Positions 4,378-63,532 of a DNA stretch of 64,000 bases are shown here, one piece after another. Under the pieces are notes generated by a model. That model was given only the letters and a program-made list of their open reading frames with translations, had not been told where the DNA came from and did no database searches. Position 1 is the stretch's first letter. Each line of letters begins with the position of its first letter. The position numbers and the translations under genes were made by a program. Location: positions 4,549-68,548 of the forward strand of contig JAHITE010000081.1 of assembly GCA_018817585.1 (NCBI GenBank). The letters are read 5' to 3'. Source of the stretch: Candidatus Omnitrophota bacterium. Its GTDB lineage: Bacteria; Omnitrophota; Gorgyraeia; B26-G9.

Positions 4378-5305
4378 CAGAATTAGCTTGTGACACCAAA
4401 TAGAGTACTGCCATTCTCACCGCGATTCCATTAGTCACCTGCTCAAGAATCACGGAATAAGTCCCATCAGCAACATCCGGCATAATTTCAATCCCCCGAT
4501 TCATTGGGCCGGGATGCATTACCAATACATCTTTTTTCGCGTATTTTTCCAGCTTTTCCTTGCTCACTCCATACTGAATCGCGTATTCGCGCATTGAAGG
4601 AAACAATCCGGCTTTTTGGCGTTCTTTTTGAATCCGCAGGATATTAATCACATCCGCGCCTTTTAATGCTTTGGATAAATCCGTGGTAATATTTACTCCC
4701 ATTTTTTCAATTTCCCGCGGTAAAAGCGTTCTCGGCGCGCAAATCGTTACATTCGCTCCCAGCTTTTTCAATCCCCAGATATTGCTGCGGGCAACCCGTG
4801 AATGCGTTATATCACCGATAATCGATACATTCAAGCCTTTTATTTTACCTTTTTTTTCTTTAATCGTAAACATATCAAGCAATGCTTGCGTAGGATGTTC
4901 ATGACAGCCGTCTCCGGCATTGATAATCGACGGCCCCATGGATTCAGCCAATGTATGCATTACTCCGCTGGAAGAATGTCGGAGAATAATCGCGTCGACT
5001 TTCATCGCTTCAATGTTTTTAAAAGTATCTTTCAGGGTCTCGCCTTTTTGAATCGCGCTGGTTGATGTGGCAATACTCAAAGTATCCGCACTTAACCTTT
5101 TTGCTGCCAGTTCAAAACTTGTTCTCGTCCTAGTTGACGGTTCAAAGAAGAATAGTACAATTGTCTTGCCGCGCAAAGTCGGTACTTTTTTAACTGAGCG
5201 GGTGGAAACTTCTTTAAACGATCCAGCTGTTTGCAGAATCAACTCAATTTCCTGCGCGGACAATTCCTCAAGTCCCAAAAGATCTTTTCTTGTCCATTCA
5301 TTCAT
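4361..5305 (-). CDS. pyrB: Aspartate carbamoyltransferase catalytic subunit
   Basis: STRTRTSFE carbamoyl-phosphate-binding motif; HPTQAL; 314 aa. Confidence 0.9.
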
Positions 5306-5856
5306 TGGCGTTTTTCCTTTTGATTGATTAAAACTATCTCATCTTTTCCATCTTCCTCAACTAATCTGACCTCTACATTTTCCTTCAAGGTTGTCGGTAA
5401 GTTCTTGCCCACATAATCCGCTCTGATCGGCAGCTCGCGGTGTCCGCGGTCAATCAATACAGCCAGCTGAATATTCTGCGGTCTGCCCAGATCAATCAGT
5501 TCATCCAAAGCGCAGCGAATCGTTCTGCCGGTAAACAAAACATCGTCAACTAAAACAATCTTTTTATCATCGATATCAAAATCAACTTTGGTGCTGTGCA
5601 CAACCGGACAGTAATCAATCATCGTTAGATCATCGCGGTAAAGAGTTATATCCATTATTCCCACCGGAACATCTGAGCCATCGATTTCTTTGATCAAATC
5701 AGCGATTCTCTGGGCAAGATAGGCTCCCCGGCAGCGGATACCAACAATCGCCAGATCCTCAGTCCCTTTATTGCGTTCGAGTATTTCATGACTAATCCGC
5801 ATCAAAGTACGTTTTATCATCTTATCGTCCATTAGATTTGCTTCTTTTTTCAGCAT
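5302..5856 (-). CDS. pyrR: Bifunctional pyrimidine operon regulator / uracil phosphoribosyltransferase PyrR. The start was moved to the SD-supported ATG; the raw ORF extends to 5895 through the attenuator terminator.
   Basis: PRPP-binding motif [34 protein letters not shown] matches the PyrR N-terminus. AGGAG SD lies 5-6 nt before the ATG at 5854-5856. Confidence 0.85.
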
Positions 5857-20285: not shown

Positions 20286-21731
20286 CTAAATCCTGCGTAC
20301 TTCCATTATATTTGATAAGAAAAGCTGATTATCTTCTGTAAGCATTACCAGCACAGTATCCTTGGGTTTTACCAATCCGTTTTTTTTTGTCAGTTTAATA
20401 CAATCATCAAGCGTTTTTCCCAGTTTGGCAAACTTCGGCATTAATAAAGGGTACACCCCCCAATACATAATCATTTGCTTTAGCACATTCTGATCAGTCG
20501 TCACGCCGACAATCATCGCCTGAGGCCGGCAGCGGCTAAGCCAGGATATTGCTTTAGCACTGTGTGTGGGCGCAATAATTGCCTGGGCATTTAGCTTATT
20601 GGAAATATTCACTGCTGCCCGGCTAAAAGCGCTGACTAAATTTTCAGTACCTGATTCCGCTAAACTTAATTCTTTTTGTTTCGCGCAGAGTTTCTTCTCA
20701 GCTCGATTAGCAATTTTCAGCATCATCTTAAGGGTTTGCACCGGATATTTACCCACCGCGGTTTCTTCTGAGAGCATCAACGCGTCAGTACCGTCAAGAA
20801 TCGCGTTAGCCACATCAGTAACTTCCGCCCGGGTTGGCTGAGGACTGACAACCATTGATTCAAGCATCTGGGTCGCGGTAATAACCGGCTTACCCACAGC
20901 ATTACATTTTCTAATAATTTCTTTTTGAAGAAAAGGCACATCCTCCAGATCAGCTTCAATCCCCAAATCTCCCCGCGCGACCATAATCGCGTCACTGACA
21001 TTAATAATATTATCAATGTCCTGAAAAGCGACTTTGCGTTCTATTTTTGCCACAACCGAAATATGTTTTTTTCTTTTATTTAAATAATTTTTTGCTTTTA
21101 TAATATCTTTTGCCTGCTGAACAAAAGACACAGCAATAAAATCAACTCCGGCTTCAATACCGTATTTCAAACATTTTAAATCATAAGCAGTCACTGAGCT
21201 CATTTTAAAAAATTGATTTGGACAACTGACTCCTTTGCGCGGATATATCCGGCCGCCGAGCAAAACTGAACAAACCGCCTTTTCCTGATTCGTTGAAATT
21301 ACCTGGAGTTTTACTAAGCCGTCATTCAGATAAACAATATTGTCTTTTTTTAGTTCCTGAATAAAAGCGCTGTGATTAACGCAAACTTCCGAATTTGTCC
21401 CAATAACTTTTCTGCTGGTAAGCGTGAATATCTGCCCCTGATTCAAGTAAATTGATTCTTCAGTTAATTCCCCCAGCCGGATTTTCGGACCAGGGAGATC
21501 CTGGAGTATCGCTACCGGAGATTTAAGTTCCTGGGCAGCTGCTTTTACCAGTTTAATATATTTCACATGATCCGCTGGTTTGCCATGTGAAAAATTAAAT
21601 CTGGCAATGTCCATTCCCGCCAGAATTAATTCTTTGATTACTTTGCGGCTGTTGCAGGCCGGACCGATTGTACAGATTACTTTTGTGCTGTTCCAATACT
21701 CTCTCATACTTTTCCCCTTGAATAGCGCCAA
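20286..21731 (-). CDS. pyk: Pyruvate kinase
   Basis: TKVICTIGPA motif; ARGDLGIE; MVARGDLG; 481 aa. The true start is probably the internal Met (MREYWN). Confidence 0.9.
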   Translation of the reverse strand: MALFKGKSMREYWNSTKVICTIGPACNSRKVIKELILAGMDIARFNFSHGKPADHVKYIKLVKAAAQELKSPVAILQDLPGPKIRLGELTEESIYLNQGQIFTLTSRKVIGTNSEVCVNHSAFIQELKKDNIVYLNDGLVKLQVISTNQEKAVCSVLLGGRIYPRKGVSCPNQFFKMSSVTAYDLKCLKYGIEAGVDFIAVSFVQQAKDIIKAKNYLNKRKKHISVVAKIERKVAFQDIDNIINVSDAIMVARGDLGIEADLEDVPFLQKEIIRKCNAVGKPVITATQMLESMVVSPQPTRAEVTDVANAILDGTDALMLSEETAVGKYPVQTLKMMLKIANRAEKKLCAKQKELSLAESGTENLVSAFSRAAVNISNKLNAQAIIAPTHSAKAISWLSRCRPQAMIVGVTTDQNVLKQMIMYWGVYPLLMPKFAKLGKTLDDCIKLTKKNGLVKPKDTVLVMLTEDNQLFLSNIMEVRRI

Positions 21732-22078
21732 TGTTCATAAGCATAATCTAAAATTCTTTGTCTGTCATCCGGCTCAATCTCATTGATTCTTAAACCCGCG
21801 TCATAATTATAAGTCCAATCCTCAGCACTTTTTCTAATCCAAACAACCTGCCCTTGAGCGAAAATCGGGATTATAGAACCGGGAATCCAAATTTCCAGTT
21901 TTAATAACTGTCCAACCGGAATATTCCGGTTCAGAGAAGCTTTCAAGCCTTCTCGATTAAAATTCATCAACATTACTAAACCGTTCTTAGCGTCTTCAGT
22001 TTGAAAAGTACCTTCTAAAAATGCCCCCAGGCGCAGGTATCTTCTCTTTTCATTATAATCAGTCATCAAAGCCTCCAT
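21704..22078 (-). CDS. PilZ-domain protein (c-di-GMP receptor-like)
   Basis: RRYLRL (RxxxR) plus an N.NREG variant of the D.S..G motif; 124 aa. Confidence 0.55.
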   Translation of the reverse strand: MEALMTDYNEKRRYLRLGAFLEGTFQTEDAKNGLVMLMNFNREGLKASLNRNIPVGQLLKLEIWIPGSIIPIFAQGQVVWIRKSAEDWTYNYDAGLRINEIEPDDRQRILDYAYEHWRYSRGKV

Positions 22079-26403: not shown

Positions 26404-26718
26404 TTAAAAGTCTCCTAAATCAGATTTGTTGACTATTCTGACAAATCGGATGCCAATATCAAATTTATTATCAGCTGTTTGATCTTTTTCCTTATACCAA
26501 ACTACTTCCCCGACCGCATAATAAGGACTGGAAGAACCGGTAATATTCACCTCAATATTTAATTTTGTCCCGATATTTAAAGGCGTATCCGTGGCAATCC
26601 TCAGTCCTCCGGTAGATATATCCTGAGTTTTGGAAAATTCCACAATATCGCTGTTTTCAACTTTCTTTCTGATCGGCATCTCCTGCGCTAATCTGGTAAA
26701 TTTCCTTTTTTCATCCAT
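26404..26718 (-). CDS. PilZ-domain protein
   Basis: RKFTR and DISTGG canonical PilZ motifs; 104 aa. Confidence 0.8.
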   Translation of the reverse strand: MDEKRKFTRLAQEMPIRKKVENSDIVEFSKTQDISTGGLRIATDTPLNIGTKLNIEVNITGSSSPYYAVGEVVWYKEKDQTADNKFDIGIRFVRIVNKSDLGDF

Positions 26719-26749: not shown

Positions 26750-29467
26750 TTACAAAGCATTATAGTAAAGTATCCGCGTTTTTGGCAAATAAGTTATTGT
26801 TACATCCTCTACAACCGGCGCTTGTTCAAAATCAGCATCATCAGGATTATCAGGCTTGTCAGGATCAGAACCATGGAGTTTTCCAAAGTCAGAAAATAAA
26901 TAAACCTGATAGCAAATAGACTGACTGGCTGTTGTTCCAATAGGGCCGCCGCTGGGCAGAATTACTGGCGGAACATATGCCGGCAAAGGCGCGCTAAGAA
27001 CCGCGCTGTCGGAAGCTGCCAGATAAACCAGCTCACTTCCCGCATCTGCATCATCTATTGCTGGATCAGCTGTTACCGGCAAAGTTACATGCGCTTGGAT
27101 TGTGCCCCATTCTAGAAACTGGCCCGAGCCCATGCCAGCAGCCGGGCTAAACATTTGAGATGTATACACTCCCTGGCTGGGAACAATTCGAATATAATCC
27201 ACATCCGGCAAATTACCCATTCCAGTAAACTGAAAAAAGCGATCTTCCCAAACCATTATCTGATGTGTTGTAATAAAAGAAGTAGTAGTGGCTGTCTTAA
27301 AATACACCTCTCCTCTAGTATGCCAACGCCCGATTCCTTTTAAATGAAATGTTTTTTCATCCTGATAAACATTTTCCACTATAAGGAAATATTCCACGCT
27401 ATCATCAGTAAAATACGGGATGTCTCCATCGCTACCAGAATACTCATTACATGATACCATCACATTAGATCCTCTAATAACTGAATATGGTTTTCTGCTG
27501 GTTTGCCATACTGCCTTTTCCCAGTCAGGAGAACCATAATCAGGTGATGGCGTAAAATAGATATACCCATTACCATCATAATTAACCCAGTTTTGGTATA
27601 CAGGGATCGAATCAGTAAGCTGATCTCTTTCCTGTACATTATTGCAGAAAATTGATGACATCAGCTCTTTGGGTGCTGATGGGTCAGGAAAATTTCCAAA
27701 ACGAACATGAAAAGTATTTATATATTGTTGATGAATCCATGGTTTAAGACAAGGAAACGCTGGGTCAGTAGACTTCCAACATTTCGCCAAATAAGCACCA
27801 AGAATACCAGTAGTGTCCGCAGCAATATCCGGGCAATTAGTTGCATCAGGCGGCGGAGCCTCGATCCAAACCCATTCTAAAGGAATCGCCGGCCAGGGTA
27901 AATTGGGACGGTCAACAGGATATTTAGCATTATCAGAATTATTTTCATCTTTTCCGTGTACAATAATCGCAAAATCATTCACAATACAGACATCTTGATC
28001 AAGATTTATTTTAGGAAAATGATCATCCGATAAATTTGTACCCGAAATCCAGGTTCTTAGCATTCCATCATTGCCATCATTAATCGTATATGTTTCATGA
28101 ACCGCTTTCCATGGCCCCTTTTGCCCTGAACCATCCGGATCCGGGCTTAAAGGATCATAATCCTCCTGAAAATTATCCCAGAATCCGAGTTTCAATGAAT
28201 CAGGAATAAAATCTTTAGGATTTTGCCCATCATCTTTATCATCTTTATAATTAAATTTCTTAAGCACAGTAAAATCAACCGGACAAGTATCTTTCCAGGA
28301 TATTCTGCAAGTAGCCAATAAATTAGCCTTGGCAATAAATTCTTCTCTAGTAGTTTGATTGATTTTGCGAAACACACTAACAACTTGTTTAATTCTTTTT
28401 TTCGCGCCTTGATATTTGCCAATAGCCTCAATTTCATAATAACCATTGGCATCAAAACCAATTTTTGTGGAATTAGTGGCATAAGTATTCGGATCACTTT
28501 GCAGCAAAACCGCGTCCCGGTTTGCTTCGGTTATAATCCCTACTGAACAAGCGTATTCAAGATAACGTTCAAATTCACCTCGCGCGCCTAAAAAATTAAA
28601 CACTCCAGCAGTCGGATTTTGTCCGTCAAAAGGATTAGTATCTCTTCTTGCTTTAATTGCAGCAGCTAGAGCATCCGCTTGACTATTGCTAAAACTGCCC
28701 ATCATTAATCTAAACACAGCTTCCAGCACTTTCAACGGTGCTGTATTAACATTTACAAATGATTTTCGGGAATGTCCGCTAACCGGAGATGTCGAGGTTT
28801 TATCCAGCTCAATAATCCCATCATCCTCATCACCCCACAAAGTAATAAAATCCTTTATTGAATTATAAGTATCTTTACCAATACCAAAAACTAATTTTAT
28901 TTCTTCTTTAGTAGTAAAAACCTGTCCCGGCAAAGTCTGACGAAAAGCCACCAGGTTTTGGGCTTGATTTGCGGTTAAACCCAGCTGATCTAAAATATCT
29001 TCTAAATCAGTTACCGCGTCTGAATTCGGTAAGGGACAGTTAATATTAATCAATCCGCCGCAGTCAATTACCTTTAAACGATAAGAGCCTTTGGCATAAG
29101 AAATATCAGCACCATAGGAAGGGGTAACAGCTGTAGCCAGCTCAACCGTAGACCCGTCATAAGCCGCATTGCCGGGATAATACCAAGGATCAGAGCTAGA
29201 ATCATAAGGTTCATTCATCGCCCCATAAGAGGAATCATACTTAATATCAGCAACTGCCCGGGCAATTCCTGCTTGGGCAATAAATGAAGCTTTAAGCAGA
29301 TTTATCTGATTTTCCGTGGCCTGAAGTTCAAGGCGGGTAAAAGCAGAAAAACCCACGGTAATTAGCACGAGAATCGCCAAGACTCCTACACTTAAAATAA
29401 GCGCTATTGCGGAATTAGGTTTAGTTTTCATTATTATAATTATATCACATCGATAGAGCCTAAACAA
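26750..29467 (-). CDS. Large (about 900 aa) PilX-N-domain pilus-associated protein (putative minor pilin / tip adhesin)
   Basis: N-terminal hydrophobic helix plus ...FTRLELQATENQINLLKASFIAQAGIARAVADI, which matches PilX_N. The long extracellular C-terminal region is rich in W/Y/G/D. The likely start is the internal Met (MKTKPNS). Confidence 0.55.
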   Translation of the reverse strand: MFRLYRCDIIIIMKTKPNSAIALILSVGVLAILVLITVGFSAFTRLELQATENQINLLKASFIAQAGIARAVADIKYDSSYGAMNEPYDSSSDPWYYPGNAAYDGSTVELATAVTPSYGADISYAKGSYRLKVIDCGGLININCPLPNSDAVTDLEDILDQLGLTANQAQNLVAFRQTLPGQVFTTKEEIKLVFGIGKDTYNSIKDFITLWGDEDDGIIELDKTSTSPVSGHSRKSFVNVNTAPLKVLEAVFRLMMGSFSNSQADALAAAIKARRDTNPFDGQNPTAGVFNFLGARGEFERYLEYACSVGIITEANRDAVLLQSDPNTYATNSTKIGFDANGYYEIEAIGKYQGAKKRIKQVVSVFRKINQTTREEFIAKANLLATCRISWKDTCPVDFTVLKKFNYKDDKDDGQNPKDFIPDSLKLGFWDNFQEDYDPLSPDPDGSGQKGPWKAVHETYTINDGNDGMLRTWISGTNLSDDHFPKINLDQDVCIVNDFAIIVHGKDENNSDNAKYPVDRPNLPWPAIPLEWVWIEAPPPDATNCPDIAADTTGILGAYLAKCWKSTDPAFPCLKPWIHQQYINTFHVRFGNFPDPSAPKELMSSIFCNNVQERDQLTDSIPVYQNWVNYDGNGYIYFTPSPDYGSPDWEKAVWQTSRKPYSVIRGSNVMVSCNEYSGSDGDIPYFTDDSVEYFLIVENVYQDEKTFHLKGIGRWHTRGEVYFKTATTTSFITTHQIMVWEDRFFQFTGMGNLPDVDYIRIVPSQGVYTSQMFSPAAGMGSGQFLEWGTIQAHVTLPVTADPAIDDADAGSELVYLAASDSAVLSAPLPAYVPPVILPSGGPIGTTASQSICYQVYLFSDFGKLHGSDPDKPDNPDDADFEQAPVVEDVTITYLPKTRILYYNAL

Positions 29468-31793: not shown

Positions 31794-32300
31794 TTATAAT
31801 TTTTGATAATTATAGATTTTAATTCTGCCGGTCGCATTGACAATTGTTAAAGTATAATACTTGCCCTGCGAATTTTTTAAAAAAATGCTGGCATTGTCTT
31901 CGGCACTACCGGTTATATTAAAAATTTCAGCAGGCCGGCTGATCAGAACATGTGAATCAACCGGCAAAGTAGTGCTTTCAATTATTACTCCGGACGCGGT
32001 TTTCATTGAAGTAGTAATTAATTGCCTGGTTAATTGATCTGGTTTGGCAAAAATAAAATACTCAGAATTAGCTGGATCAAAAGCAACTCCATGCTCAATC
32101 TGATGAGTGATCGCCAAACTGCGAGCCTGATTAAGCGCGGCCATAATATTATTTGCTGAGATTTTTAGAGCAGCACCGGCTTTATAATTAAAAAAATACA
32201 CCGTGGTAAGCCCCATGAGCATTGTGATAATGCCTAAGACAACCATCATTTCTATCAAACTAACTGCTTTAATTTTTTTCATAATTAATAAGTATAACAC
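31794..32300 (-). CDS. Prepilin-type N-terminal cleavage/methylation domain protein (type IV pilin / pseudopilin)
   Basis: MKKIKAVSLIEMMVVLGIITMLMGL, with Glu at +5 after the predicted cleavage site. The start is ambiguous (GTG at 32300 or ATG at 32282). Confidence 0.75.
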   Translation of the reverse strand: MLYLLIMKKIKAVSLIEMMVVLGIITMLMGLTTVYFFNYKAGAALKISANNIMAALNQARSLAITHQIEHGVAFDPANSEYFIFAKPDQLTRQLITTSMKTASGVIIESTTLPVDSHVLISRPAEIFNITGSAEDNASIFLKNSQGKYYTLTIVNATGRIKIYNYQKL

Positions 32301-32337
32301 AAAATTTATTCAGATAACAAGGGATAAGAGTATAAAT

Positions 32338-32376
32338 GTGGGGTTAGTGGGGTTAGTGGGGTTAGTGGGGTTAGTG
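32338..32376. repeat. 9-bp tandem repeat (GGGTTAGTG, equivalent to GGGGTTAGT) in 4.3 copies, immediately upstream of the pilin gene promoter.
   Basis: gtg(gggttagtg)x4 read directly from the sequence. A TATACT -10-like hexamer follows on the minus strand. Confidence 0.9.
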
Positions 32377-32399
32377 CGTTGTCGCGTTAACTCGATAAC

Positions 32400-32850
32400 T
32401 CATAGAGAAATAAAAAAAGCCGGTAAGGGTAAACTTACTTTCGGCAACCCAGCCGCCATTGCGCTTTCCACCCTCGACAGTTTTCATTGTATTACTTTTC
32501 CTCCACTTGGGTCATGAAGGCTGGTATAAATAACTGTCGTAAGAATAGACACTTTAGGCCTGTAGCATTGCCTCGAATACAGAGCAAAAACTCAAAACTC
32601 TGCTTTCGAGGGCACTGTTCTGAGTAAATCAAAACAAGTGCCGCCCTCGCTTTTCAGCTCCCGATTGCATCATCCAAAAATGACACAATCCCAATAAATA
32701 GCCATAAATCCCTAGCTCTGGGCTAAGCGATCAATCAAAAACAATGAATTGACCAGCAAAGTGGGATCTCAATCACAGCATATCAAATCAATGAACTTGA
32801 GAGAGTTTGCCCTTATCGACTCTAATATAGATTGTACCATACAAATTGAA
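32400..32850 (-). ncRNA. Candidate structured non-coding RNA (~450 nt) of unknown class.
   Basis: A 600-bp gap with no ORF of 60 aa or more and GC clearly above the flanks. Extended -10 promoter TGcTATAAT on the minus strand (~32858-32866). Intrinsic terminator hairpin plus T7 on the minus strand (~32405-32435). Multiple long GC stems, e.g. cgagggcggcac...gtgccctcg and cctcgaa...ttcgagg. Confidence 0.45.
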
Positions 32851-32901
32851 TTATAGCAACTCTTTATAAAAGTATTTTTTATCAATAAAAAAATTTATTG
32901 C

Positions 32902-33270
32902 TTAATAACTGTATTCATCTTCAAACACAACCTTAAAATCAAAAATATTTTTAAAATCTTCAATATTATCATCTTCAGTTTTACCTAAAACACCAGCATC
33001 AACCATATTAAATACAATATTGCCAAAGTCCTCAGTAACTTTAACCCCCCAATGCTCAAGCACTGTTCTGGCCATTCTGCCGTATTCACACAAAGCATAG
33101 TCCCTAATACCTTCAGACAGCTCCTTACCGCTAACATGGCCTTTGCGTTTTAAACGCTGCATTGTAAAATTCAAGGCGCCTAGAATAAATGGATAAGCAT
33201 CCAGCTTATATCTTTTATCATGCTCGCAAATTACTGTCAAAACACTTATCATATCTTCTTTTGATTCCAT
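32902..33270 (-). CDS. Hypothetical protein (122 aa, acidic C-terminus)
   Basis: ORF with typical codon usage; no motif recognised. Confidence 0.4.
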   Translation of the reverse strand: MESKEDMISVLTVICEHDKRYKLDAYPFILGALNFTMQRLKRKGHVSGKELSEGIRDYALCEYGRMARTVLEHWGVKVTEDFGNIVFNMVDAGVLGKTEDDNIEDFKNIFDFKVVFEDEYSY

Positions 33271-35164: not shown

Positions 35165-36895
35165 TTATTTCCTTCCCTGCAAATTAAACATTTGCTTAAT
35201 TTCTTCTACGGTAGTAGCATCTTTGGCTGCCTTATCAATGCGGATAAAACCTACTGTACGCGGGAAGCGCAAAGCATAACCAGTATCATCCTTACTATCT
35301 TTACCGCATGTATGCACCGGACTTTGAGTGATTTCATCAGCCTGGACTTCCACTACATAGAGCGGATCAACCCACACATCAGGCACAATTAAGGACTCAA
35401 CATTTTTCGGCATAAAATTTATTTTGATTTTATCAAGAGTTTCCTTAAACCGGACTAATTCATCGTCACTTAATCCAGTACCTATTTTAGCAATTGTTTT
35501 AAACCTGCCTACCGTTGGATCATAAACAGCAGCTAATAGGGATCCAATGCCAAATGCCGCTCTCAATCCTTTGCCAAAAAAATAGCCGATAATAACACAA
35601 TCAATCGTATCATTTAAATTGTCGGAATACGACTGTTTTAATTTTATCCAATTAAAATTTCTTCCTCCGGCCTTATATTCACCATCCAGGCGTTTGGCAA
35701 CAATGCCTTCCCGGCCCTGGGCAATAGCATCTTCAAATATTTCAGTTAAACGCTGGGCTGTTTTTACTTCTTCAACCGGAGATAATTCCAAAACCTTGCC
35801 TTTTTTGATCAACTCTGACATAATCTGCCGTCTTTGACTAAAAGCATACTGAGTTAAATCTTTATCCGCGTACAAAAGATCAAACACAAAAATCTTCAAA
35901 GGAAATTTTTCCCGAATGGATTCAATGCCATGCTTGCGCTTTCGCTGTACAGTTGTCTGAAAAGGCAAACACTGTCCGGTAGCTGGATCATAAGCCAAAG
36001 CTTCACCCTCGAAAATCACATTGCTTTCTTTTATCTGATCAAGAGTCCCCTGAATAATCTCCGGAAACATATGAGTTGTATTTTCCAGATTACGCGAAAA
36101 AATCTGAACTTTGTTGCCCATTTTATGCACTTGACAGCGGAACCCGTCATATTTTTCTTCCACAGCGCAAGTTCCGATTTTTTCAATAATCTCTTCTGGT
36201 CCGGATAATCGCGCTGCCAAGGCAACCCGAATCGGACAGCCGACCATTACTTTAAAATCAATAATACTGCTAATCCCCTTGGTAAATAATATTTTCGCCA
36301 CCAAGCCAAGATCAGAACAAAGATTATAAGCCCGCTCCAAATCCGGGCGTAAAAGTTTATCCTGATTATAGGCAAGGGAAAGACTGTCTAAAACAGTAGG
36401 ATCACCTACCCCCAATCTCAGCTTGCCTAAAATTATCCGAATAATATATTTTGCCTCAAGCGGACTGGCATTTTTTAATAAATCAGCAAGAAATTCGATT
36501 TTACGAGCCACTGATCCATCACCGGAAAACTCAGCGAGTTTTTCTAAATTCGCGTAAACCTGACTAATACTTAAAACTTCTAAATGATCTAAACAAACCT
36601 TTTCCGCGACTAATCCATAATCCCCAAGCTGATGAACCATTGCTTCAATATCATTTGATATCCCGCCGGTTGCCTGAACAATAGCGCGATGAATAAGTTT
36701 TTCACTGATTCCAAACTCAATATTGCGAAATGAAGGCAACAGCTGCCCCTGCGTAAGATAGATAATTTCATCTATTTTTTCTTTTTCTACTGGATCAAGA
36801 TTAGTAAAAAGCTCAGCTAAAATATCAGTCATCTCCAGCCGTTTAGCGGTATTTTCCAGCTTTTGAAAATAAGCAGCCAGTTGTTTAAATTTCAT
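35165..36895 (-). CDS. lig: ATP-dependent DNA ligase (LigI/archaeal-type, three-domain)
   Basis: Adenylation motif I EEKYDGFR (KxDG); OB domain; N-terminal DNA-binding domain; 576 aa. Confidence 0.85.
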   Translation of the reverse strand: MKFKQLAAYFQKLENTAKRLEMTDILAELFTNLDPVEKEKIDEIIYLTQGQLLPSFRNIEFGISEKLIHRAIVQATGGISNDIEAMVHQLGDYGLVAEKVCLDHLEVLSISQVYANLEKLAEFSGDGSVARKIEFLADLLKNASPLEAKYIIRIILGKLRLGVGDPTVLDSLSLAYNQDKLLRPDLERAYNLCSDLGLVAKILFTKGISSIIDFKVMVGCPIRVALAARLSGPEEIIEKIGTCAVEEKYDGFRCQVHKMGNKVQIFSRNLENTTHMFPEIIQGTLDQIKESNVIFEGEALAYDPATGQCLPFQTTVQRKRKHGIESIREKFPLKIFVFDLLYADKDLTQYAFSQRRQIMSELIKKGKVLELSPVEEVKTAQRLTEIFEDAIAQGREGIVAKRLDGEYKAGGRNFNWIKLKQSYSDNLNDTIDCVIIGYFFGKGLRAAFGIGSLLAAVYDPTVGRFKTIAKIGTGLSDDELVRFKETLDKIKINFMPKNVESLIVPDVWVDPLYVVEVQADEITQSPVHTCGKDSKDDTGYALRFPRTVGFIRIDKAAKDATTVEEIKQMFNLQGRK

Positions 36896-48768: not shown

Positions 48769-50451
48769 TTACATTTTATCCGGAGCACTTACACCCAAAA
48801 GCTTTAAGCCAATAGCAATAACCTGCCGAACACAGCCAATTAAAACTAAACGGGCTCGGCTAAGCTCCCCTTTACTCTCATCAAAAACCCGATGTTTACT
48901 GTAAAACCCGTGAAAATCCGCGGCAAGCTGTCTTAAATAAGTTGTCAAAGCCTGGGGATCTAAAGTTAACGCGCAAAGCTCAAGAACATCAGAAAAAGCA
49001 TTCATCCGGCGGATTAGATCCAGGCATTCCTGTTCAGCAAGCAAATCAAAATTAATTTCAATATTTTCCAGCTCAGATTTAAACTGATTAGCAGATTCAA
49101 AAATACTGCAAATCCTGGCATGAGCGTACTGAACATAATAAACCGGGTTATCCATACTATGTTTTTTAGCCAGTTCCAGATCAAAATCCAGTTGGGAGTC
49201 ACAGCGGCGCATTAAAAAGAAAAACCGGGCAGCATCACAGCCGACTTCCTCGATTAATTCCTCAAGAGTAATGTATTCACCAGCCCGCGTGGACATTTTC
49301 ACCGGCTTACCAGCCCGCGATAAAGTTGCCAGCTGAATAATTAGAACCTCTAAATCAGCTTTATTATGCCCTAAAGCACAGGCAGCGGCTTTAATCCGGT
49401 TTATATAACCATGATGATCCGGACCTAAAATATCAATCAGTTTGTCAAAGCCTCGATCAAATTTCATTTTATGATACGCGATATCCGGGGTCAGATAAGT
49501 AAACAGCCCATCGCTTTTAATCACTACCCGGTCTTTATCATCACCAAACTCTGTTGATTTAAACCAGGTTGCTCCATCGAGTTCATAAATTAAATTTTTA
49601 TTTTTCAACTCAGTTAACACCTGATTTATTTTATCATTAGTCACATGGTCTTTCTGACTAAACCATTGATCAAATTCAACCCCAAAATCTTTTAGTTCCT
49701 GCTCTATTCCCTGAAGAATTGAGTTTGCCGCGAACTCCGCAAACTTTTTTACTGTCTGCTCACTGTTATCATTTAAAAAATTAGAGCCCTCAGCATCAAT
49801 CATCTTCTGAGCTAATTCAATTAAATAATCCCCCTTATATCCCTGCTCGGGAAAATCAATATCTTTTTTTCCTAATTTTTCCTGATAGCGAAACAGTAAG
49901 CTCAATCCGAGATTTCTAATTTGATTACCATAATCATTGATATAATACTCTTTAGACACAGTCTGTCCGCGAAAAGCAAGAATGCTGGCCAAACTCTCAC
50001 CCACGGCTGCTTGACGGGCATGCGCGATGCTCAAAGGTCCAGTAGGATTGGCACTGACAAATTCAATCAGGATTCGCTGTTTATTTTTTAAATTGGTTTT
50101 GCCAAAATCATTAGCTTGTTCCAAAATCATCCTAAGCACATCATGCATCGCGTTAGCGGAAAGGAAAATATTAATAAATCCCGGAGATTTTATTTCTATT
50201 TTAGCGATTTTACTTTCCATTTTTTTTTGCTTGAGTTTTTCCGCTAATTTTTCATTAAGAAACTTAGCAATTTCCAGCGGCGGTTTTTTGCAATCTTTTA
50301 CCAGCTTCATTGCCGTATTAACCGACCAATCGCCAAATTGAGGTTCTTTAGGATTTTCGATTTCAATCAAAACATCTTTATTAGTAAGCGCATGTTCCTG
50401 AATAATTTCCTTAATTGATTGAATAATTATATTTTTTAAGTCATAAGACAT
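48769..50451 (-). CDS. argS: Arginine--tRNA ligase
   Basis: SANPTGPLSIAHAR (HIGH-type motif of ArgRS); C-terminal DALR anticodon-binding domain. The start was moved to MSYDL; the raw ORF extends to 50484. Confidence 0.9.
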   Translation of the reverse strand: MSYDLKNIIIQSIKEIIQEHALTNKDVLIEIENPKEPQFGDWSVNTAMKLVKDCKKPPLEIAKFLNEKLAEKLKQKKMESKIAKIEIKSPGFINIFLSANAMHDVLRMILEQANDFGKTNLKNKQRILIEFVSANPTGPLSIAHARQAAVGESLASILAFRGQTVSKEYYINDYGNQIRNLGLSLLFRYQEKLGKKDIDFPEQGYKGDYLIELAQKMIDAEGSNFLNDNSEQTVKKFAEFAANSILQGIEQELKDFGVEFDQWFSQKDHVTNDKINQVLTELKNKNLIYELDGATWFKSTEFGDDKDRVVIKSDGLFTYLTPDIAYHKMKFDRGFDKLIDILGPDHHGYINRIKAAACALGHNKADLEVLIIQLATLSRAGKPVKMSTRAGEYITLEELIEEVGCDAARFFFLMRRCDSQLDFDLELAKKHSMDNPVYYVQYAHARICSIFESANQFKSELENIEINFDLLAEQECLDLIRRMNAFSDVLELCALTLDPQALTTYLRQLAADFHGFYSKHRVFDESKGELSRARLVLIGCVRQVIAIGLKLLGVSAPDKM

Positions 50452-51163
50452 CAGAAGCCTCTCCCGCGATTTCAAACAAATCATTTCCCTTTTTCATTAA
50501 TTTAACAAAAACTTCGACAACCTTTGGATCAAATTGAGTGCCGCTAAAATTCTCCAGTTCAGCCAAGGCTTCTTCCTTACTTATCGGATCCCGATAAGGA
50601 CGCTTACCGGTCATCGCGTCAAAGCTATCGGCTACAGCCATTATTCTTGCTCCGATATCAATCTTGTCGCCTTTTATTCCATCAGGATATCCAGTACCAT
50701 CATAGCGTTCATGATGCTGTCTGACAATCAAAACTACTTTATCTAAAAAATGAAATGGCTTTAAAATTACTGCTCCGGCCAAAGCATGCAATTTCATTTC
50801 TTTAAATTCCTGCTCAGTGAGTTTGCCGGGTTTGGTCAGGATATTATCATGCACTCCGATTTTACCCAGATCATGAACCTGGCAGGCTTCTTTTATCGTA
50901 TCTATCTGCGCCTTAGACAAACCCATTTCTTTGGCAATCGCTAAGGCGTAATGTTTAACATTATCCGAATGATTTCTCGTCAGTTTGTCTTTAAAATCAA
51001 TTGCCGAAACCAGGGAATTGATCGTACGCATAACATTTCTCCGCTCAAGACGGCTCCATACCAGGCGGTGTCTAAGTCTTTCTTCTTTACGATATATCCG
51101 ATATCCAATAAAACTACCGATAAAAAAAGTCACAATGGGTAAAATATACGTCAATAAATCCAT
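50441..51163 (-). CDS. HD-GYP domain c-di-GMP phosphodiesterase with an N-terminal TM helix
   Basis: HDLGKIGV, HHERYDGTGYPDG (HD..GYP) motifs; 240 aa. Confidence 0.8.
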   Translation of the reverse strand: MDLLTYILPIVTFFIGSFIGYRIYRKEERLRHRLVWSRLERRNVMRTINSLVSAIDFKDKLTRNHSDNVKHYALAIAKEMGLSKAQIDTIKEACQVHDLGKIGVHDNILTKPGKLTEQEFKEMKLHALAGAVILKPFHFLDKVVLIVRQHHERYDGTGYPDGIKGDKIDIGARIMAVADSFDAMTGKRPYRDPISKEEALAELENFSGTQFDPKVVEVFVKLMKKGNDLFEIAGEASDVL

Positions 51164-59184: not shown

Positions 59185-60936
59185 TTATTTTTTAAAGAAA
59201 AAGCCTTTATTGCCGTCTTTTTTATCCGCTTTTTCTTCAACTGTTTTTTCTTTTACTGGTTTAGCAGCAACCGGAGTAGTTACCTGTGTTTGTTTTTTAG
59301 TTACAGGCTGTGCTTCGGCAGCAGGCTTATTAATTTCTGCTGCTGATTCCGGACTAAATGCTGCTTCGTCAATCACCATTACACTTTCCGGTAATACCGC
59401 AGGTAATGTCATTGCCGGAGAAACCGCTGGAATAATTGCTTCTTTATTCGGCTGTTCAACAAACATCTCTCCTTCAATAAAACTATCTTCTTTTGCTTTT
59501 GCCTTAGTGCTGGCTTCGACCAAATTATCATCATCCCCCAGGTTAACCAGTCTTTGCACATCCAAAGCTTTGGTTATTTCCTGGCGCTTAGCTAAAGTTT
59601 CCTCTTTTACAATATGCGGAGTAATGAAAATCAAAAGATCATTTTTAATTATTTCCTCAGATTTATGGGTAAACAATAATCCTAATATCGGAAGATCTCC
59701 CAGCAAAGGTACTTTGGTTTTTGTGGTTACTACTTTGTCTTTTATTAATCCGCCGATAACCAAAGTATTTCCATCTTTAATCATTACAGTACAATCTGTT
59801 GATTGGGTGGTTAAAACCGGGACACGCGCGCCTTGAAAATCAATTTCTTCCTGTTTATCGCTGATCTCTGGATGCAGTTTTAAAGTAACATAGCCGTTCT
59901 GGTTAATCGTTGGTGTGACTTTCAGCAAAATCCCGTAACTTTTATATTCCCAGCCGCTGATTACAAATCTGTCTGTCTGTTCATTATATGTATAGTTAGC
60001 AATCGGCCAATCTGTTCCCACATGAATTTCTGCAGGCTCATTATCCAGGGTTGTAATTCTTGGATTGGAAAGTATTTTAGTTTTACCTCTGCTCTGAATA
60101 GCTTCAAGTAAAACATTGAATGCGCTGCCGTCTAAAATTCCATAAGAAAATTGCGAGGCTTCAGCTAAAGGAAATGAACTGGCTCCGGGATGAAAAGTCG
60201 CGGCATCGTCCCCATTAGGGAGAACATTACTATATGTTTCGCCAGCACTATTAGACGGCCAAGGAAATGTCGTTGGACGACTGGACATGCCCGCGCTGTA
60301 TGAAGCATTCCATTTTATTCCTAAATCCTGGGAATTAGTCATATTAGTTTCCACAATCTTAGCTTCGATTGAAACCTGAGGAGTCATGGAATCAAGTCTT
60401 TTAATTACCTGAGCGATTTTATAAATATTTGTGGGGATATCTGTAACAATTATTAAATTTGCCCGATCATCTGCTTTTATTTTTCCTCTGTCAGAGCGCA
60501 TTTCGGCAATCGCTTCGGCAACGCTTGCTGCTTTAGCATAATTTAGGGGAAAAACATCAGTTACCAGATTTTCCTGTCCCTGTTTGTCTAAAGTAGTAAC
60601 CCGGATAATATTCGCTTCCCGCTCATAGGCATAGGCATATGTACGGCAAATTACATCCAAGGCCTTTTCCCAAGGGATATCAGTTATCTGAACTGTAACC
60701 AAACCTTTTACTTCCGGATCAGACACAATGCTTACATTTCCCTTTAATGCCAACACTCTAAAAACATCATGAATATCCGCGTCTTTAAACTCAACACTGA
60801 TATTCCCTTCCCCAGCATCTTCAACCTGCATTTCATTAACACCATTAGCCGCGATAAAAGATGCCACTCCTAAAATCAAGATAAATACTACTGCCGCCAG
60901 CTTAACCTTAAACATTAAATTTTTATCAGTCCCCAT
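59185..60936 (-). CDS. pilQ: Type IV pilus secretin PilQ
   Basis: C-terminal secretin domain ...GGLIKDKVVTTKTKVPLLGDLPILGLLF; N0/N1-like domains; Lys/Pro-rich N-terminal linker; 583 aa. Confidence 0.85.
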   Translation of the reverse strand: MGTDKNLMFKVKLAAVVFILILGVASFIAANGVNEMQVEDAGEGNISVEFKDADIHDVFRVLALKGNVSIVSDPEVKGLVTVQITDIPWEKALDVICRTYAYAYEREANIIRVTTLDKQGQENLVTDVFPLNYAKAASVAEAIAEMRSDRGKIKADDRANLIIVTDIPTNIYKIAQVIKRLDSMTPQVSIEAKIVETNMTNSQDLGIKWNASYSAGMSSRPTTFPWPSNSAGETYSNVLPNGDDAATFHPGASSFPLAEASQFSYGILDGSAFNVLLEAIQSRGKTKILSNPRITTLDNEPAEIHVGTDWPIANYTYNEQTDRFVISGWEYKSYGILLKVTPTINQNGYVTLKLHPEISDKQEEIDFQGARVPVLTTQSTDCTVMIKDGNTLVIGGLIKDKVVTTKTKVPLLGDLPILGLLFTHKSEEIIKNDLLIFITPHIVKEETLAKRQEITKALDVQRLVNLGDDDNLVEASTKAKAKEDSFIEGEMFVEQPNKEAIIPAVSPAMTLPAVLPESVMVIDEAAFSPESAAEINKPAAEAQPVTKKQTQVTTPVAAKPVKEKTVEEKADKKDGNKGFFFKK

Positions 60937-61312
60937 TTTTATCTCCCCCTCCTTTTTTTAAGTAAATCACAATAACTTTCCCCTCTTTTTGCAAAAGCAC
61001 ACTGTCTTTTTTTATTTTTAAAACCTGCAGATTCATAATTCGCTGCTGTTCTTTAACTGGTTTCCCATTAATGATCGCCAGCGAATTACCATTAGGATCC
61101 CAAATAACTCCTTCGAGTTCAACATTCGTTGATTCGGTAATTTCTCTGGCTCCGGGCAGGATCCGGCCATCACTGGTTACCAAAGAAATAAACGGATCAC
61201 GCGTCTGTTTATCTTTATAGACAAAATCGCGATCAGCCTTAGCAAAAGCCGATGCGCTCAAGAGCAACAGAATAACAATAATCAATATTTTTTTAAACAC
61301 TATTATCCTCAC
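60926..61312 (-). CDS. pilP: PilP-like pilus assembly lipoprotein
   Basis: Signal peptide; RDPF motif; beta-sandwich-like GVIWDPNGNSLAIINGKPV; 128 aa. Position between pilO and pilQ. Confidence 0.55.
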   Translation of the reverse strand: MRIIVFKKILIIVILLLLSASAFAKADRDFVYKDKQTRDPFISLVTSDGRILPGAREITESTNVELEGVIWDPNGNSLAIINGKPVKEQQRIMNLQVLKIKKDSVLLQKEGKVIVIYLKKGGGDKNGD

Positions 61313-61856
61313 TCAAGCAAAAAGCATAGATAGAAATAAACACTTGAATCTTATCTGTGTCTGGATCGTCTTTTCTAATTTTCAGATTACCAATCCGCAT
61401 AAATTTATCAGCGGATTCAATGTCATTTATAAACTTTCCTAATTCATGATACCCGCAATAGGCATCAATAAAAACCGGAATATTGATGAAAAATAAACCT
61501 TGCGCTTCAGTTATTTTCTGGGGTTCAATAGCAACAATTTTCACATCATTATTTTTCGCTAATTTTGAAATTAATTCCAGAAAAACCGGAAAATCTTTTT
61601 GCGCGGGCAGACCGGCTAAAAAATCATTATAGGCTTGACTTAAAGATGCTTCCTCTTTTTCTACAAAAGCAAAGTTTTTAATCCCAGTATCAAGCTCATT
61701 CAAAATCGCCCGTTTATCCGCGATTTCTTTGGATACTTTCTGCATATTCATCACCTGGGGCACAGTTAAGAACAAACAAACTCCGGCAATACACCCCAGA
61801 ATAATCTGGAATATGGGAATTTTTATTTTTTTCAAAAAAGAAATATCTAAACTCAT
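61293..61856 (-). CDS. pilO: PilO-like type IV pilus assembly protein
   Basis: N-terminal TM plus coiled coil, then a ferredoxin-like domain; 187 aa. Gene order pilM-N-O-P-Q. Confidence 0.55.
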   Translation of the reverse strand: MSLDISFLKKIKIPIFQIILGCIAGVCLFLTVPQVMNMQKVSKEIADKRAILNELDTGIKNFAFVEKEEASLSQAYNDFLAGLPAQKDFPVFLELISKLAKNNDVKIVAIEPQKITEAQGLFFINIPVFIDAYCGYHELGKFINDIESADKFMRIGNLKIRKDDPDTDKIQVFISIYAFCLSEDNSV

Positions 61857-62476
61857 AAATTAACATCCGGTTTAAACAAACAAAGTAAAGTAAAGTCCAT
61901 AACTTCGATTGAAGCAATACTCCGGCTCACCACTCCCTCTAGCTCAATATTACTAAATTCATTTATAAACTCATCGCTGGTTTTAAGCCTTCTGATTAAC
62001 TTACCGATAATCCCCATTTCATCGCGGGTGATTGAAACAACACTTGCTCCAATCTTTAAATGATTAATTGAATTACCGGGATAATTAGGATCAAGCATTG
62101 GATTAATTATTTTTCGTTCTAAAGATATATTTCTCAGCCAAATCCCCGGCAAGATCAATTCATCTAAAAAGTAAAGTTTTTTTGACCATAAAAACCGATT
62201 ATTCACAAAAGGACTGAACAAAGCATTTGTTGATTTTAAACTCTGCATTCTCCGCTGCAAAGCAATGATCTTCTGTTGTTCCGGGGCTAATCCTTCTAAT
62301 CTTGTATTAATCGCGTTAAGCGTAAGTGTCCGGGAAAGATTCATCCCTGTAACAATCAATAAAACTACAAGCAAAACAGCGTTACTACTAATCAGAATTA
62401 AATTTACCGGCACATTTTTGGATGTTGATTTCCGCAATACCTTATATTCAGCTGGAAGTAAATTTATTTCTATCAT
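61853..62476 (-). CDS. pilN: PilN-like type IV pilus assembly protein
   Basis: N-terminal MIEINLLPAEYK (conserved INLLP), then a TM helix; 207 aa. Confidence 0.65.
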   Translation of the reverse strand: MIEINLLPAEYKVLRKSTSKNVPVNLILISSNAVLLVVLLIVTGMNLSRTLTLNAINTRLEGLAPEQQKIIALQRRMQSLKSTNALFSPFVNNRFLWSKKLYFLDELILPGIWLRNISLERKIINPMLDPNYPGNSINHLKIGASVVSITRDEMGIIGKLIRRLKTSDEFINEFSNIELEGVVSRSIASIEVMDFTLLCLFKPDVNL

Positions 62477-62479
62477 TAT

Positions 62480-63532
62480 TTAGCCTCTTAAAGCCAATCC
62501 CACGGCAACAGTTAAAAGCGGGCCGGTTTCCACTAATTTTTCTCTGGGTAAAGCTTCATTGACCATTAATATCCGGGTTGGATCCCAAATTTCCACATCA
62601 ACTCCCAGGATACCGCTTAAGACTTTACCAATTCCCTTAAATTTAGCCATCCCCCCGGTGAGAAAAATTTTCTGCACTGAACCACCGAGCTGACTTTCGC
62701 AATAATTAAACGATAATTGCATTTCATCAGCCAAAGAATCTATAACCGGACGAATCGCGGTGATTAAATCTCCATATCGAGTCTGAGGATTATGCTTAAG
62801 CTCATCCGCTTCTTCAACCGTCATCTCAAATTCCTCAATTATCGCTCTGGTAAAATTATTGCCGCCAATCGACACATCGCGATTAAAATACGGAACATTA
62901 TCCTTTAAAATCGTAGTACTGGTAATATCCGCGCCAATATCTAAAACAGCAATAATTCCTTTATTTTCCTGGCTGACTAATTGAAACGAATTCACAATGG
63001 CAAAAGAATCAACGTCAATAACATTAGCCTTCAGCCCGGCTTTAGAAAGAACAGCAATCCGTTCCTTGATAATATCTTTTTTAACCGCAACCAGCATAAC
63101 TCGCATCATTTTAGATCTTTTATCTGAATCATCGAGTATTTGACAATCAGAGTTTACTTCATCGACCCCAAAAGGAATATATTTTCCAATACCAAGTTTA
63201 AGCGCTTTATCTAACTCATCTTTCGTCATTTTAGGCATTTGAATATACCGGACAATCACTGCCTGTCCGGAAACCGAAGTATTGACAGAGGTGACATTGA
63301 TATTGGCGTTTTTCATCGCTGTTTTTATGGTTGCGGCAATTGTATCATTGTTGACCGGATAAGTAAAGCGCTGGACATCAAAACTAACCAGTTCTTTGAG
63401 TTTGCTATTGGGTTTTGAACACAATTGCACAACCTTAACACTGGAATTGCCAATATCCAGTCCGACTTCAAATTTTGGCTTCTGTTTTATAAATTTATTT
63501 AATATAGTCTTTATTTTTTCCATAGTTTTCAA
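62480..63532 (-). CDS. pilM: Type IV pilus assembly ATPase-fold protein PilM
   Basis: Actin-like fold VGLDIGNSSVKVVQL; 350 aa. Confidence 0.85.
   Translation of the reverse strand: MKTMEKIKTILNKFIKQKPKFEVGLDIGNSSVKVVQLCSKPNSKLKELVSFDVQRFTYPVNNDTIAATIKTAMKNANINVTSVNTSVSGQAVIVRYIQMPKMTKDELDKALKLGIGKYIPFGVDEVNSDCQILDDSDKRSKMMRVMLVAVKKDIIKERIAVLSKAGLKANVIDVDSFAIVNSFQLVSQENKGIIAVLDIGADITSTTILKDNVPYFNRDVSIGGNNFTRAIIEEFEMTVEEADELKHNPQTRYGDLITAIRPVIDSLADEMQLSFNYCESQLGGSVQKIFLTGGMAKFKGIGKVLSGILGVDVEIWDPTRILMVNEALPREKLVETGPLLTVAVGLALRG

Follow-up and report, generated by a model that had tools for sequence, protein, structure and literature searches.

We analyzed a 64-kb stretch of DNA from Candidatus Omnitrophota bacterium, referred to here as the window, and describe an RNA encoded on the minus strand of one of its spacers. 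It is a conserved, discrete and structured RNA of this organism and represents a known class in an enlarged variant; its core is very probably an aptamer derived from the c-di-GMP-I (GEMM-I) riboswitch for c-di-GMP (cyclic diguanosine monophosphate). All RNA coordinates are given as window positions. The spacer (32301-32901, 601 bp) is the window's largest between open reading frames (ORFs) of at least 100 amino acids, and its minus strand contains no ORF of 60 amino acids or more, in agreement with an earlier note made from the sequence alone (the original prediction), which had singled out a long ORF-free gap here. It is bordered by a Minf_1886-family gene (32902-33270, minus strand), whose 122-amino acid product is annotated publicly as Candidatus Omnitrophica/Omnitrophota, Minf_1886 family, and by a GspH-like pseudopilin ORF (31794-32300, minus strand). 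The RNA unit itself (32412-32824, minus strand, ~410 nt) is free of ORFs and consists of a promoter, a structured RNA and a terminator in which a hairpin is followed by seven T residues (T7). The GC content is raised, as had been claimed, at 0.425 (32407-32825) as compared to 0.382 for the window and 0.18-0.37 for the other spacers, but the rise is modest. Every ORF of at least 20 amino acids at the locus was listed. The plus-strand ORF at 32203-32517, which had been dismissed at the outset, is indeed unconserved in relatives, and a 38-amino acid minus-strand ORF (32371-32487) that is preceded by GGAGGA was also rejected, as it is unconserved and reads ATG TAA in one related contig (L002). The minus strand is predicted to fold with an energy of -144 kcal/mol (z = -4.9 versus shuffles), and the plus strand with -111 kcal/mol (z = -4.1).

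The RNA is preceded by a sigma-70-type promoter (32859-32831, minus strand) composed of a -35 box (TTGCTA, 32859-32854), a 17-nt spacer and an extended -10 element (TGgTACAAT, 32839-32831), which together score 9 of 12 matches plus the TG. This layout occurs at a fixed distance from the conserved 5' end of the RNA in all 12 family members described below, and therefore transcription is expected to start near 32824 and to yield an RNA of ~410 nt rather than the ~450 nt originally proposed. The extended -10 element on which the earlier estimate was based (TGcTATAAT) does occur, at 32858-32850, but overlapping with the conserved promoter's -35 box; that call is ~20 nt off. Upstream lies an A/T-rich block resembling an UP element (TACTTTTATAAAG, 32873-32861, minus strand), and most relatives keep an A/T-rich block of the form TAC(T/A)TTTATAAAG at approximately -45 to -58 relative to the promoter of the RNA. 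No convincing terminator was found between the Minf_1886 stop codon and the RNA promoter, so the RNA may additionally form the 3' end of a surE-Minf_1886 transcript. At the other end, the predicted GC hairpin and T7 tract were both located on the minus strand (32445-32419 and 32418-32412, respectively); the hairpin is bulged by 3 nt, which is why a simple terminator scan missed it.

Relatives of the RNA were collected from contigs encoding homologues of the flanking Minf_1886 protein, followed by blastn and nhmmer searches, and the resulting family set comprises 12 distinct Omnitrophota sequences. The family reaches relatives in which the neighboring protein retains 60% identity. The spacer is 87%, 78% and 74% identical at the nucleotide level in relatives whose protein is 93%, 87% and 82% identical, respectively, and nucleotide similarity among relatives breaks off exactly at the terminator. 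Distant genomes keep just both ends and the 3' half of the RNA, in versions of 247-266 nt, and one locus (L043) carries a 182-nt mini-version. Species-representative genomes were scanned with the invariant 21-mer CGCAATGGNGGCTGNGTTGCC, which identified nine true Omnitrophota contigs along with 10 chance matches, and a metagenome scan added three more family loci, of which L043 alone is a new sequence. Viral contigs were scanned as well and contain no family match; this result and the single copy seen in the window by blastn and nhmmer led us to reject a repeat or mobile element as the identity of the locus. The earlier proposal that relatives be checked for covariation was borne out by these 12 sequences. 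In a covariation test that used a MAFFT alignment, the structure mapped from L017, and slid as well as 500 shuffled controls, 85.9% of the cells pair as compared to 42-49% in the slid controls, and 32 pairs are changed on both sides as compared to 12-15. None of the 500 shuffles reaches the observed values on four of the five measures, and five of 500 do so for the remaining measure, further pair types.

The family was compared with the covariance models of Rfam. Positions 229-342 of L043 score 52.6 bits on the c-di-GMP-I model RF01051 (gathering score 35), L008 and L019 match the whole model below threshold (25.2 and 23.5 bits, respectively), and L017, L025 and L012 score 25.8-28.0 bits, again below threshold, on RF03167, a variant model of the same clan. 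Eight members were run in E-value mode, and the c-di-GMP-I clan is the sole recurring match in six of them; L013 and L028 gave no match in this mode. The sole weak Rfam matches on the window locus, to a microRNA and a CRISPR repeat, are at chance level. A hand count of the RF01051 consensus line against the sequence shows that the window agrees with ~30 of the 33 highly conserved consensus positions, and the features of the class can be located at the sequence level, namely a pair of hairpins, a tetraloop with its receptor-like motif, a putative flanking P1 helix, and equivalents of the contact nucleotides and of the C44-G83 pair. Known housekeeping RNAs were not recognized in the original prediction, and this holds: the window has no above-threshold match to any Rfam family, and ARAGORN finds no tRNA or transfer-messenger RNA (tmRNA) at the locus. 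RNase P, SRP, tmRNA and 6S RNAs, whose motifs were compared by eye, were rejected because no model matches and the order of motifs is wrong. OLE, GOLLD, ROOL, HEARO and raiA RNAs, as well as the housekeeping RNAs, share with the window RNA a size class, a dedicated promoter and terminator, and a complex fold, but they produce no covariance-model match at E <= 10 and no ARAGORN match, and the conserved core of the window RNA is that of GEMM-I. The suggestion that the locus encodes an unclassified large non-coding RNA of the OLE/GOLLD/ROOL size class is thus not upheld, since the relatives and the core link it to c-di-GMP-I and its size arises from insertions. For the same reasons we consider it extremely improbable that this is an unrelated new class of large structured RNA: although the window itself lacks an Rfam match and has the length (~410 nt), strong fold and covariation that such a class would display, its relatives match the c-di-GMP-I clan, in one case with a score that exceeds the gathering threshold, and the window holds the GEMM-I core position for position. 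We found no literature on structured or non-coding RNAs of the Omnitrophota/Omnitrophica.

Read from 5' to 3', the window RNA consists of AAG-GGC-AAA, CUC, 144 nt, GCU-GAAA-AGCGAG, GGC, two inserted hairpins (Pi1 and Pi2, 71 nt), GC-AAU, GCUACAGGCC-UAAAG-UG, an 86-nt distal domain, and CGC-AAUGG-C-GG-CUGGGUU-GCC. The insertions enlarge the aptamer to ~380 nt from the ~90 nt of the Rfam consensus. Because the raw MAFFT alignment misplaces the insertions in the first hairpin, P1a, where RNAalifold then pairs the P1a 3' strand with Pi2, an anchor-based parse was used instead; it is unique in 12 of 12 members and runs through the tetraloop, the 6-nt 3' strand, G(A/G)C, the insertion and GC-AA(U/A). 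At the 5' end, the strand GUCGAUAAGGG (32820-32810, minus strand) contains UCG (32819-32817), the 5' half of a short putative P1 helix, followed by AUAAG and the G20 equivalent (32811), which are junction nucleotides and are unpaired in the aptamer according to the Rfam structure line. The helix formed by this strand (helix 1 of the covariation test) is paired in 97.9% of the cells and has two pairs changed on both sides. G21 (32810) and C22 (32809) form a 2-bp stem with G45 and C46 (32571-32570). In L043 (206-260), two registers are available for the GGC-AAA box, the family-homologous 5'-end GGUUAAC and an internal GGCAGAUCC, the latter being used by the Rfam alignment.

In this class, the first hairpin combines a 2-bp stem with a 6-bp stem, places a 3-nt internal loop between them and is capped by a GNRA tetraloop (PMC1950547). 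Its counterpart in the window, P1a (P2 in crystal-structure nomenclature; 32808-32646, minus strand, from the anchor parse of 12 members), has an AAA internal loop (32808-32806), a GAAA tetraloop (32655-32652) and a 6-bp stem in which CUC (32805-32803) and GCU (32658-32656) pair with AGCGAG (32651-32646). The 5' strand of this stem is split after base pair 3 by a 144-nt multi-branched insertion (32802-32659). The 6-bp stem can be assembled in every member, with six of six pairs formed in 11 of the 12 and four of the six pairs compensatory; the tetraloop is GAAA in 11 members and UAAA in one. The insertion is 0, 42, 73-75 or 144-145 nt long depending on the lineage, and the 5' strand is broken after base pair 2-3, 3 or 5-6. 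Because the break point differs among lineages, the alignment suggests repeated, independent decoration of the P1a helix. On its 3' side, the internal loop reads GGC in the window (32645-32643, minus strand; consensus GAC), where C32643 corresponds to C44; across the family it is GAC in six members and GGC in six, with the C invariant.

Between the C44 and G45 equivalents lies a second insertion of 71 nt (32642-32572, minus strand) that forms two abutting hairpins, Pi1 (32642-32611, GGCAC...GUGCC) and Pi2 (32610-32572, CUCGAA...UUCGAG); these are the helices quoted in the original prediction, and both exist. Eleven members carry a junction insertion of 53-72 nt, each with two hairpins (-16 to -33 kcal/mol), and L043, like canonical GEMM-I RNAs, is without it. 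Three of the five closing pairs are compensatory in Pi1 and likewise in Pi2 (helices 4 and 5 of the covariation test). The insertion is followed by the linker GC-AAU (32571-32567, minus strand), in which A32569 is the invariant A47 equivalent and U takes the place of A at the third position; AAU is found in the window and in 9 of the 12 members overall, and AAA in L012, L019 and L043. The second hairpin, P1b (P3; 32566-32446, minus strand, from the Rfam alignment of the homologous L043 segment), is formed by the strands GCU-A-CAG-GCC (32566-32557) and GGC-GG-CUG-GGU-U (32457-32446), and is lengthened by an 86-nt distal extension (32549-32464) that is flanked by the closing pairs GUG/CGC. Two of its pairs are compensatory and the others invariant; helix 6 is 96.7% paired, and in helix 10 six of seven pairs are changed on both sides. 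Within P1b a receptor-like UAAAG (32556-32552) faces AAUGG (32460-32456), and the motif CC-UAAAG (32558-32552) / C-AAU-GG (32461-32456) resembles the 11-nt receptor CCUAAG/UAUGG, a match at the level of sequence that aligns in L043 with the receptor region of the Rfam consensus. The aptamer closes with the equivalents of G91, C92, C93, G94 and A95 (32445-32441, minus strand), of which CGA (32443-32441) is the 3' half of the putative P1 and GCCG (32445-32442) doubles as the terminator hairpin's outer 5' strand. P1 (UCG/CGA) would be a 3-bp helix; its outer pair is U-A in six members, C-G in two and U.U in four, and an 11-bp long helix competes for its 5' strand.

The nucleotides that contact the ligand in this class are G20, A47 and C92 (PMC4744006, PMC5888326). 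Their equivalents, as aligned to the Rfam consensus (G32811, A32569 and C32444, the last being the predicted ligand-pairing position), are invariant in 12 of 12 members. So are C32643 and G32453, which by our own assignment of Vc2 numbering correspond to C44 and G83, a universally conserved inter-helix Watson-Crick pair in Vc2 (PMC4744006). The window RNA thus resembles RF01051 (V. cholerae Vc2, Vc1) in its GGC-AAA box, its 2-bp plus 6-bp P1a with GAAA, its receptor-like P1b, its G20, A47, C92 and C44-G83 equivalents, a terminator that overlaps the 3' side of the second hairpin, its placement upstream of a gene of the pilus or secretion type, and a host from the Planctomycetes-Verrucomicrobia-Chlamydiae (PVC) group, where GEMM is common. 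It differs in its length (~380 versus ~90 nt, through the 144-nt P1a branch, the two hairpins at C44/G45 and the 86-nt P1b extension), in its linker (AAU, not AAA) and internal loop (GGC, not GAC), in going undetected by the Rfam model, and in the ability of its downstream linker (13 nt) and an 11-nt strand to form a long 5'-3' helix.

Mutating positions 20 and 92 retargets this fold to cyclic GMP-AMP (cGAMP) or cyclic di-AMP (c-di-AMP) (PMC7288161). As G20 and C92 are canonical, c-di-GMP, rather than either of these, would be the expected ligand of the window RNA. Two related systems were weighed in this respect. The c-di-GMP-I-GGC variant (RF03167) has the same pattern in its 5' half (AAAGGCAAACC..GAAAG..GGGACG) and gives L017, L025 and L012 their best sub-threshold scores, but its gathering score is 59 and the window has no match to it; the apparent 'G47' that suggests membership is the inserted hairpin GGCAC read as linker, and the true linker begins with A, not G. 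Membership in RF03167 was therefore rejected. The cGAMP-sensing GEMM-Ib RNAs of Geobacter share the fold and often lie upstream of pilus and cytochrome genes, but recognition of cGAMP goes with A20, and a G20A mutant binds cGAMP (PMC7288161); this position is G in 12 of 12 members, which led us to set GEMM-Ib aside. It is also conceivable that Pi1, Pi2 and the AAA-to-AAU change in the linker have remodeled the pocket, fitting it to a different cyclic dinucleotide or to a related signal. The linker lends this idea some weight, as AAU is present in 9 of the 12 members and the canonical class has AAA 'virtually always', with two exceptions in 322 RNAs (PMC1950547), as do the 53-72-nt insertion at C44/G45 in 11 members and the known variants of the fold that switch ligand through point changes (PMC7288161). 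We nevertheless regard it as very unlikely, because G20 and C92, which set specificity, and the intercalating A47 are canonical and invariant throughout, and because L043 combines a canonical junction and linker with a core that is otherwise common to the family, which argues that the family descends from an ordinary c-di-GMP sensor. Receptors for c-di-GMP are, moreover, encoded in the window. Specifically, two small PilZ-domain proteins (21704-22078 and 26404-26718) and an HD_5 (HD-GYP-type) protein (50441-51163; all on the minus strand) are c-di-GMP receptors and a likely phosphodiesterase, respectively, and their presence implies that the organism uses c-di-GMP.

The aptamer is followed by an expression platform (32440-32412, minus strand) that consists of a linker (AAGUAAGUUUA, 32440-32430), a switching strand (CCCUUACCGGC, 32429-32419) and the T7 tract (32418-32412); in 10 of the 12 members the U-tract directly follows the switching strand. 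The switching strand has two potential partners. Pairing with the 5' strand produces an 11-bp long helix (-12.6 kcal/mol in the window and -12.6 to -17.6 kcal/mol across the family; 2 of 11 pairs compensatory) that would bury the junction nucleotides, G20 and G21. Pairing with GCCG..GUAAG produces a local hairpin (-8.0 kcal/mol in the window and -2.6 to -20.9 kcal/mol across the family) that shares G91-G94 with the base of P1b and P1. Both helices abut the U-tract, and the linker resembles, or mimics, the 5' strand. When the aptamer fold is imposed, no helix remains at the U-tract; there is just a 5-bp hairpin, 4 nt away. Given that the switching strand is a competitor of both aptamer halves and that the forced aptamer leaves the U-tract without a helix, we infer an ON switch in which c-di-GMP would block the terminator. 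In the absence of c-di-GMP, the switching strand would pair with either the 5' core or the 3' edge of P1b/P1 against the U-tract and transcription would end; the released RNA would then settle into the long-helix form, a stable molecule with both ends paired. With c-di-GMP bound, the aptamer would hold both partner strands, leaving only the 5-bp hairpin 4 nt from the U-tract, and the polymerase would read on towards the pseudopilin gene. A terminator that overlaps the 3' side of the second hairpin is found in 78 of 322 GEMM RNAs and has been read as ligand-ON (Weinberg et al., PMC1950547). Taken as a whole, including this ON-switch logic, the interpretation of the window RNA as a divergent c-di-GMP-I riboswitch is likely to be correct.

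The candidate regulated gene encodes the GspH-like pseudopilin (31794-32282, minus strand), which carries a prepilin N-terminal methylation motif and scores 21.6 bits on N_methyl and 18.8 bits, below cut-off, on GspH. It probably starts at the ATG at 32282 and not at the GTG at 32300. The RNA lies on the same strand 130 nt upstream, with the 5' strand of its terminator (GCCG) overlapping G91-G94, and a pseudopilin gene lies downstream of the RNA in seven of the nine loci that have downstream sequence. GEMM RNAs are known from the literature to occur upstream of pilus and secretion genes. The original prediction had offered a lineage-specific riboregulator next to the pilin gene as an alternative; this is close to the truth. 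In the window, the pilin promoter consists of TTGTTA (32320-32315), 18 nt and TGtTATACT (32299-32291) and ends 9 nt before the ATG, and the same layout of promoter and start is seen in L008, L017, L025, L028 and L019. The pilin genes have no Shine-Dalgarno sequence, and because the promoter ends just before the ATG, the pilin mRNA may be leaderless. Two further features of the window touch on pilus biology: a type IV pilus / type II secretion cluster with a secretin, PilM and neighbors (59185-63532), and a T2SSK-like protein of 905 amino acids (26750-29467).

Several points count against the riboswitch interpretation. The window has no Rfam match at the gathering score, nor any at E <= 10 on 700 nt of the locus, so the Rfam check proposed with the original prediction gave no confident match; the RF01051 model misses the RNA because of the 144-, 71- and 86-nt insertions. 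As the RF01051 gathering score is not reached, the RNA is filed as a variant and not as a plain member of the class, and the case for its membership comes from relatives together with manual parsing. In the enlarged versions, the P1a 5' strand was constructed by picking the split that maximizes pairing, which favors the model, and there are deviations from the consensus: A43 to G (six of 12 members), A49 to U (nine of 12) and A82 to G. The 71-nt insertion at the binding junction could, putatively, alter ligand binding. The bound fold has an energy of -121.0 kcal/mol as compared to -141.2 kcal/mol for the minimum-free-energy fold in a secondary-structure model that carries no tertiary or ligand energy, and within this model the deficit must be met by tertiary contacts, the ligand and co-transcriptional kinetics. 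With regard to the gene, every pilin gene has its own conserved promoter (TTGxxx, 17-18 nt, TGTTATACT) 8-10 nt before the ATG, so read-through transcripts may not be the source of pilin. In L002 an insertion of 630 nt separates the RNA from the gene, different genes lie downstream in L012 and L043, and a second terminator in L043 is not in competition with the aptamer; the adjacency of the pilin gene could be explained by synteny through descent. In L010 and L011 (4300-4420), which represent one related lineage, the pseudopilin gene directly follows Minf_1886 with no RNA between them, and on the sequences at hand the RNA is dispensable or lost in that lineage.

Some of these points would also fit a different role, in which the molecule is a stand-alone c-di-GMP-binding small RNA (sRNA) that always terminates at the T7 tract, because either helix formed against the U-tract would stop transcription, and is released as a free 410-nt molecule with paired ends, rather than as the leader of a pilin mRNA. 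The inserted domains could give such an RNA a function in trans, or it could serve as a stable RNA that depends on the ligand or as a c-di-GMP buffer. Riboswitch-containing sRNAs exist, an example being the Vc2-containing sRNA of V. cholerae, and the window RNA resembles them in that the aptamer resides on a discrete, terminated transcript in which the ligand could govern the stability or fate of the RNA instead of an ORF; it differs from them in that a trans target and ligand-dependent stability are without support. The unit of promoter, aptamer and terminator is followed in every locus by the next gene's own promoter, and in L043 the extra, non-competing terminator precedes that promoter. 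The leaderless appearance of the pilin genes, their replacement by other genes in L012 and L043, and the tolerance of the 630-nt insertion in L002 point in the same direction, as do the long 5'-3' helix, which is the minimum-free-energy state in all folds, and the large conserved insertions, which have no role in a simple switch. Against this role, 297 of 309 GEMM RNAs are in a 5' regulatory configuration (PMC1950547), the same-strand pseudopilin gene is next in seven of nine loci, and a switching strand that competes with both aptamer halves, together with a linker that mimics the 5' strand, is a hallmark of an expression platform. We therefore consider a stand-alone sRNA unlikely, albeit a serious competing explanation. 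Slightly less likely again is a specific form of it, a free-standing RNA of ~410 nt in which c-di-GMP would gate the output of the P1a branch, Pi1/Pi2 and the P1b arm, perhaps with a remodeled pocket; were it true, it would constitute a second-messenger-gated, trans-acting RNA in Omnitrophota nanobacteria.

Other features were noted around the RNA. A perfect 9-nt tandem repeat (GTGGGGTTA, 4.3 copies; 32338-32376) sits downstream of the riboswitch terminator and ahead of the pilin promoter's -35 box, and its four GGGG runs on the plus strand make it capable of forming a G-quadruplex. The copy number is variable between strains, with 3.3 copies in the nearly identical contig L001 and one in L002; the repeat also accounts for the GLVGLVGLV sequence of the spurious ORF on the plus strand. 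A different repeat, located downstream, gives rise to the contig breaks seen near the locus: several assemblies are interrupted at a point 100-750 nt downstream of the RNA, L005 (5014-5040) and L006 (4972-4998) end in an identical 27-mer, and L002 has its 630-nt insertion (4866-5494) at that spot. Together these suggest a repeated element, or one resembling a miniature inverted-repeat transposable element, that inserts just past the terminator and is absent from the window. Elsewhere, the window of this bacterial genome encodes a 576-amino acid ATP-dependent DNA ligase (35165-36895) with the three domains of the archaeal/eukaryal type (DNA_ligase_A_N/M/C), and this gene is syntenic across these Omnitrophota.

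Returning to the c-di-GMP-I riboswitch, the window RNA indicates that a compact, well-studied aptamer can bear insertions that total over 300 nt, including one at the ligand-binding junction, while keeping every contact-nucleotide equivalent. The varied decoration of P1a amounts to a natural experiment that would be useful to RNA engineers. Such insertions push the element below detection by Rfam, and riboswitch censuses in candidate phyla such as the Omnitrophota are likely to be undercounts. The pilus and secretion systems of Omnitrophota are thought to be important for a host-associated lifestyle, and if the regulatory inference holds, c-di-GMP signaling would be tied to a pilin-like gene in this phylum.

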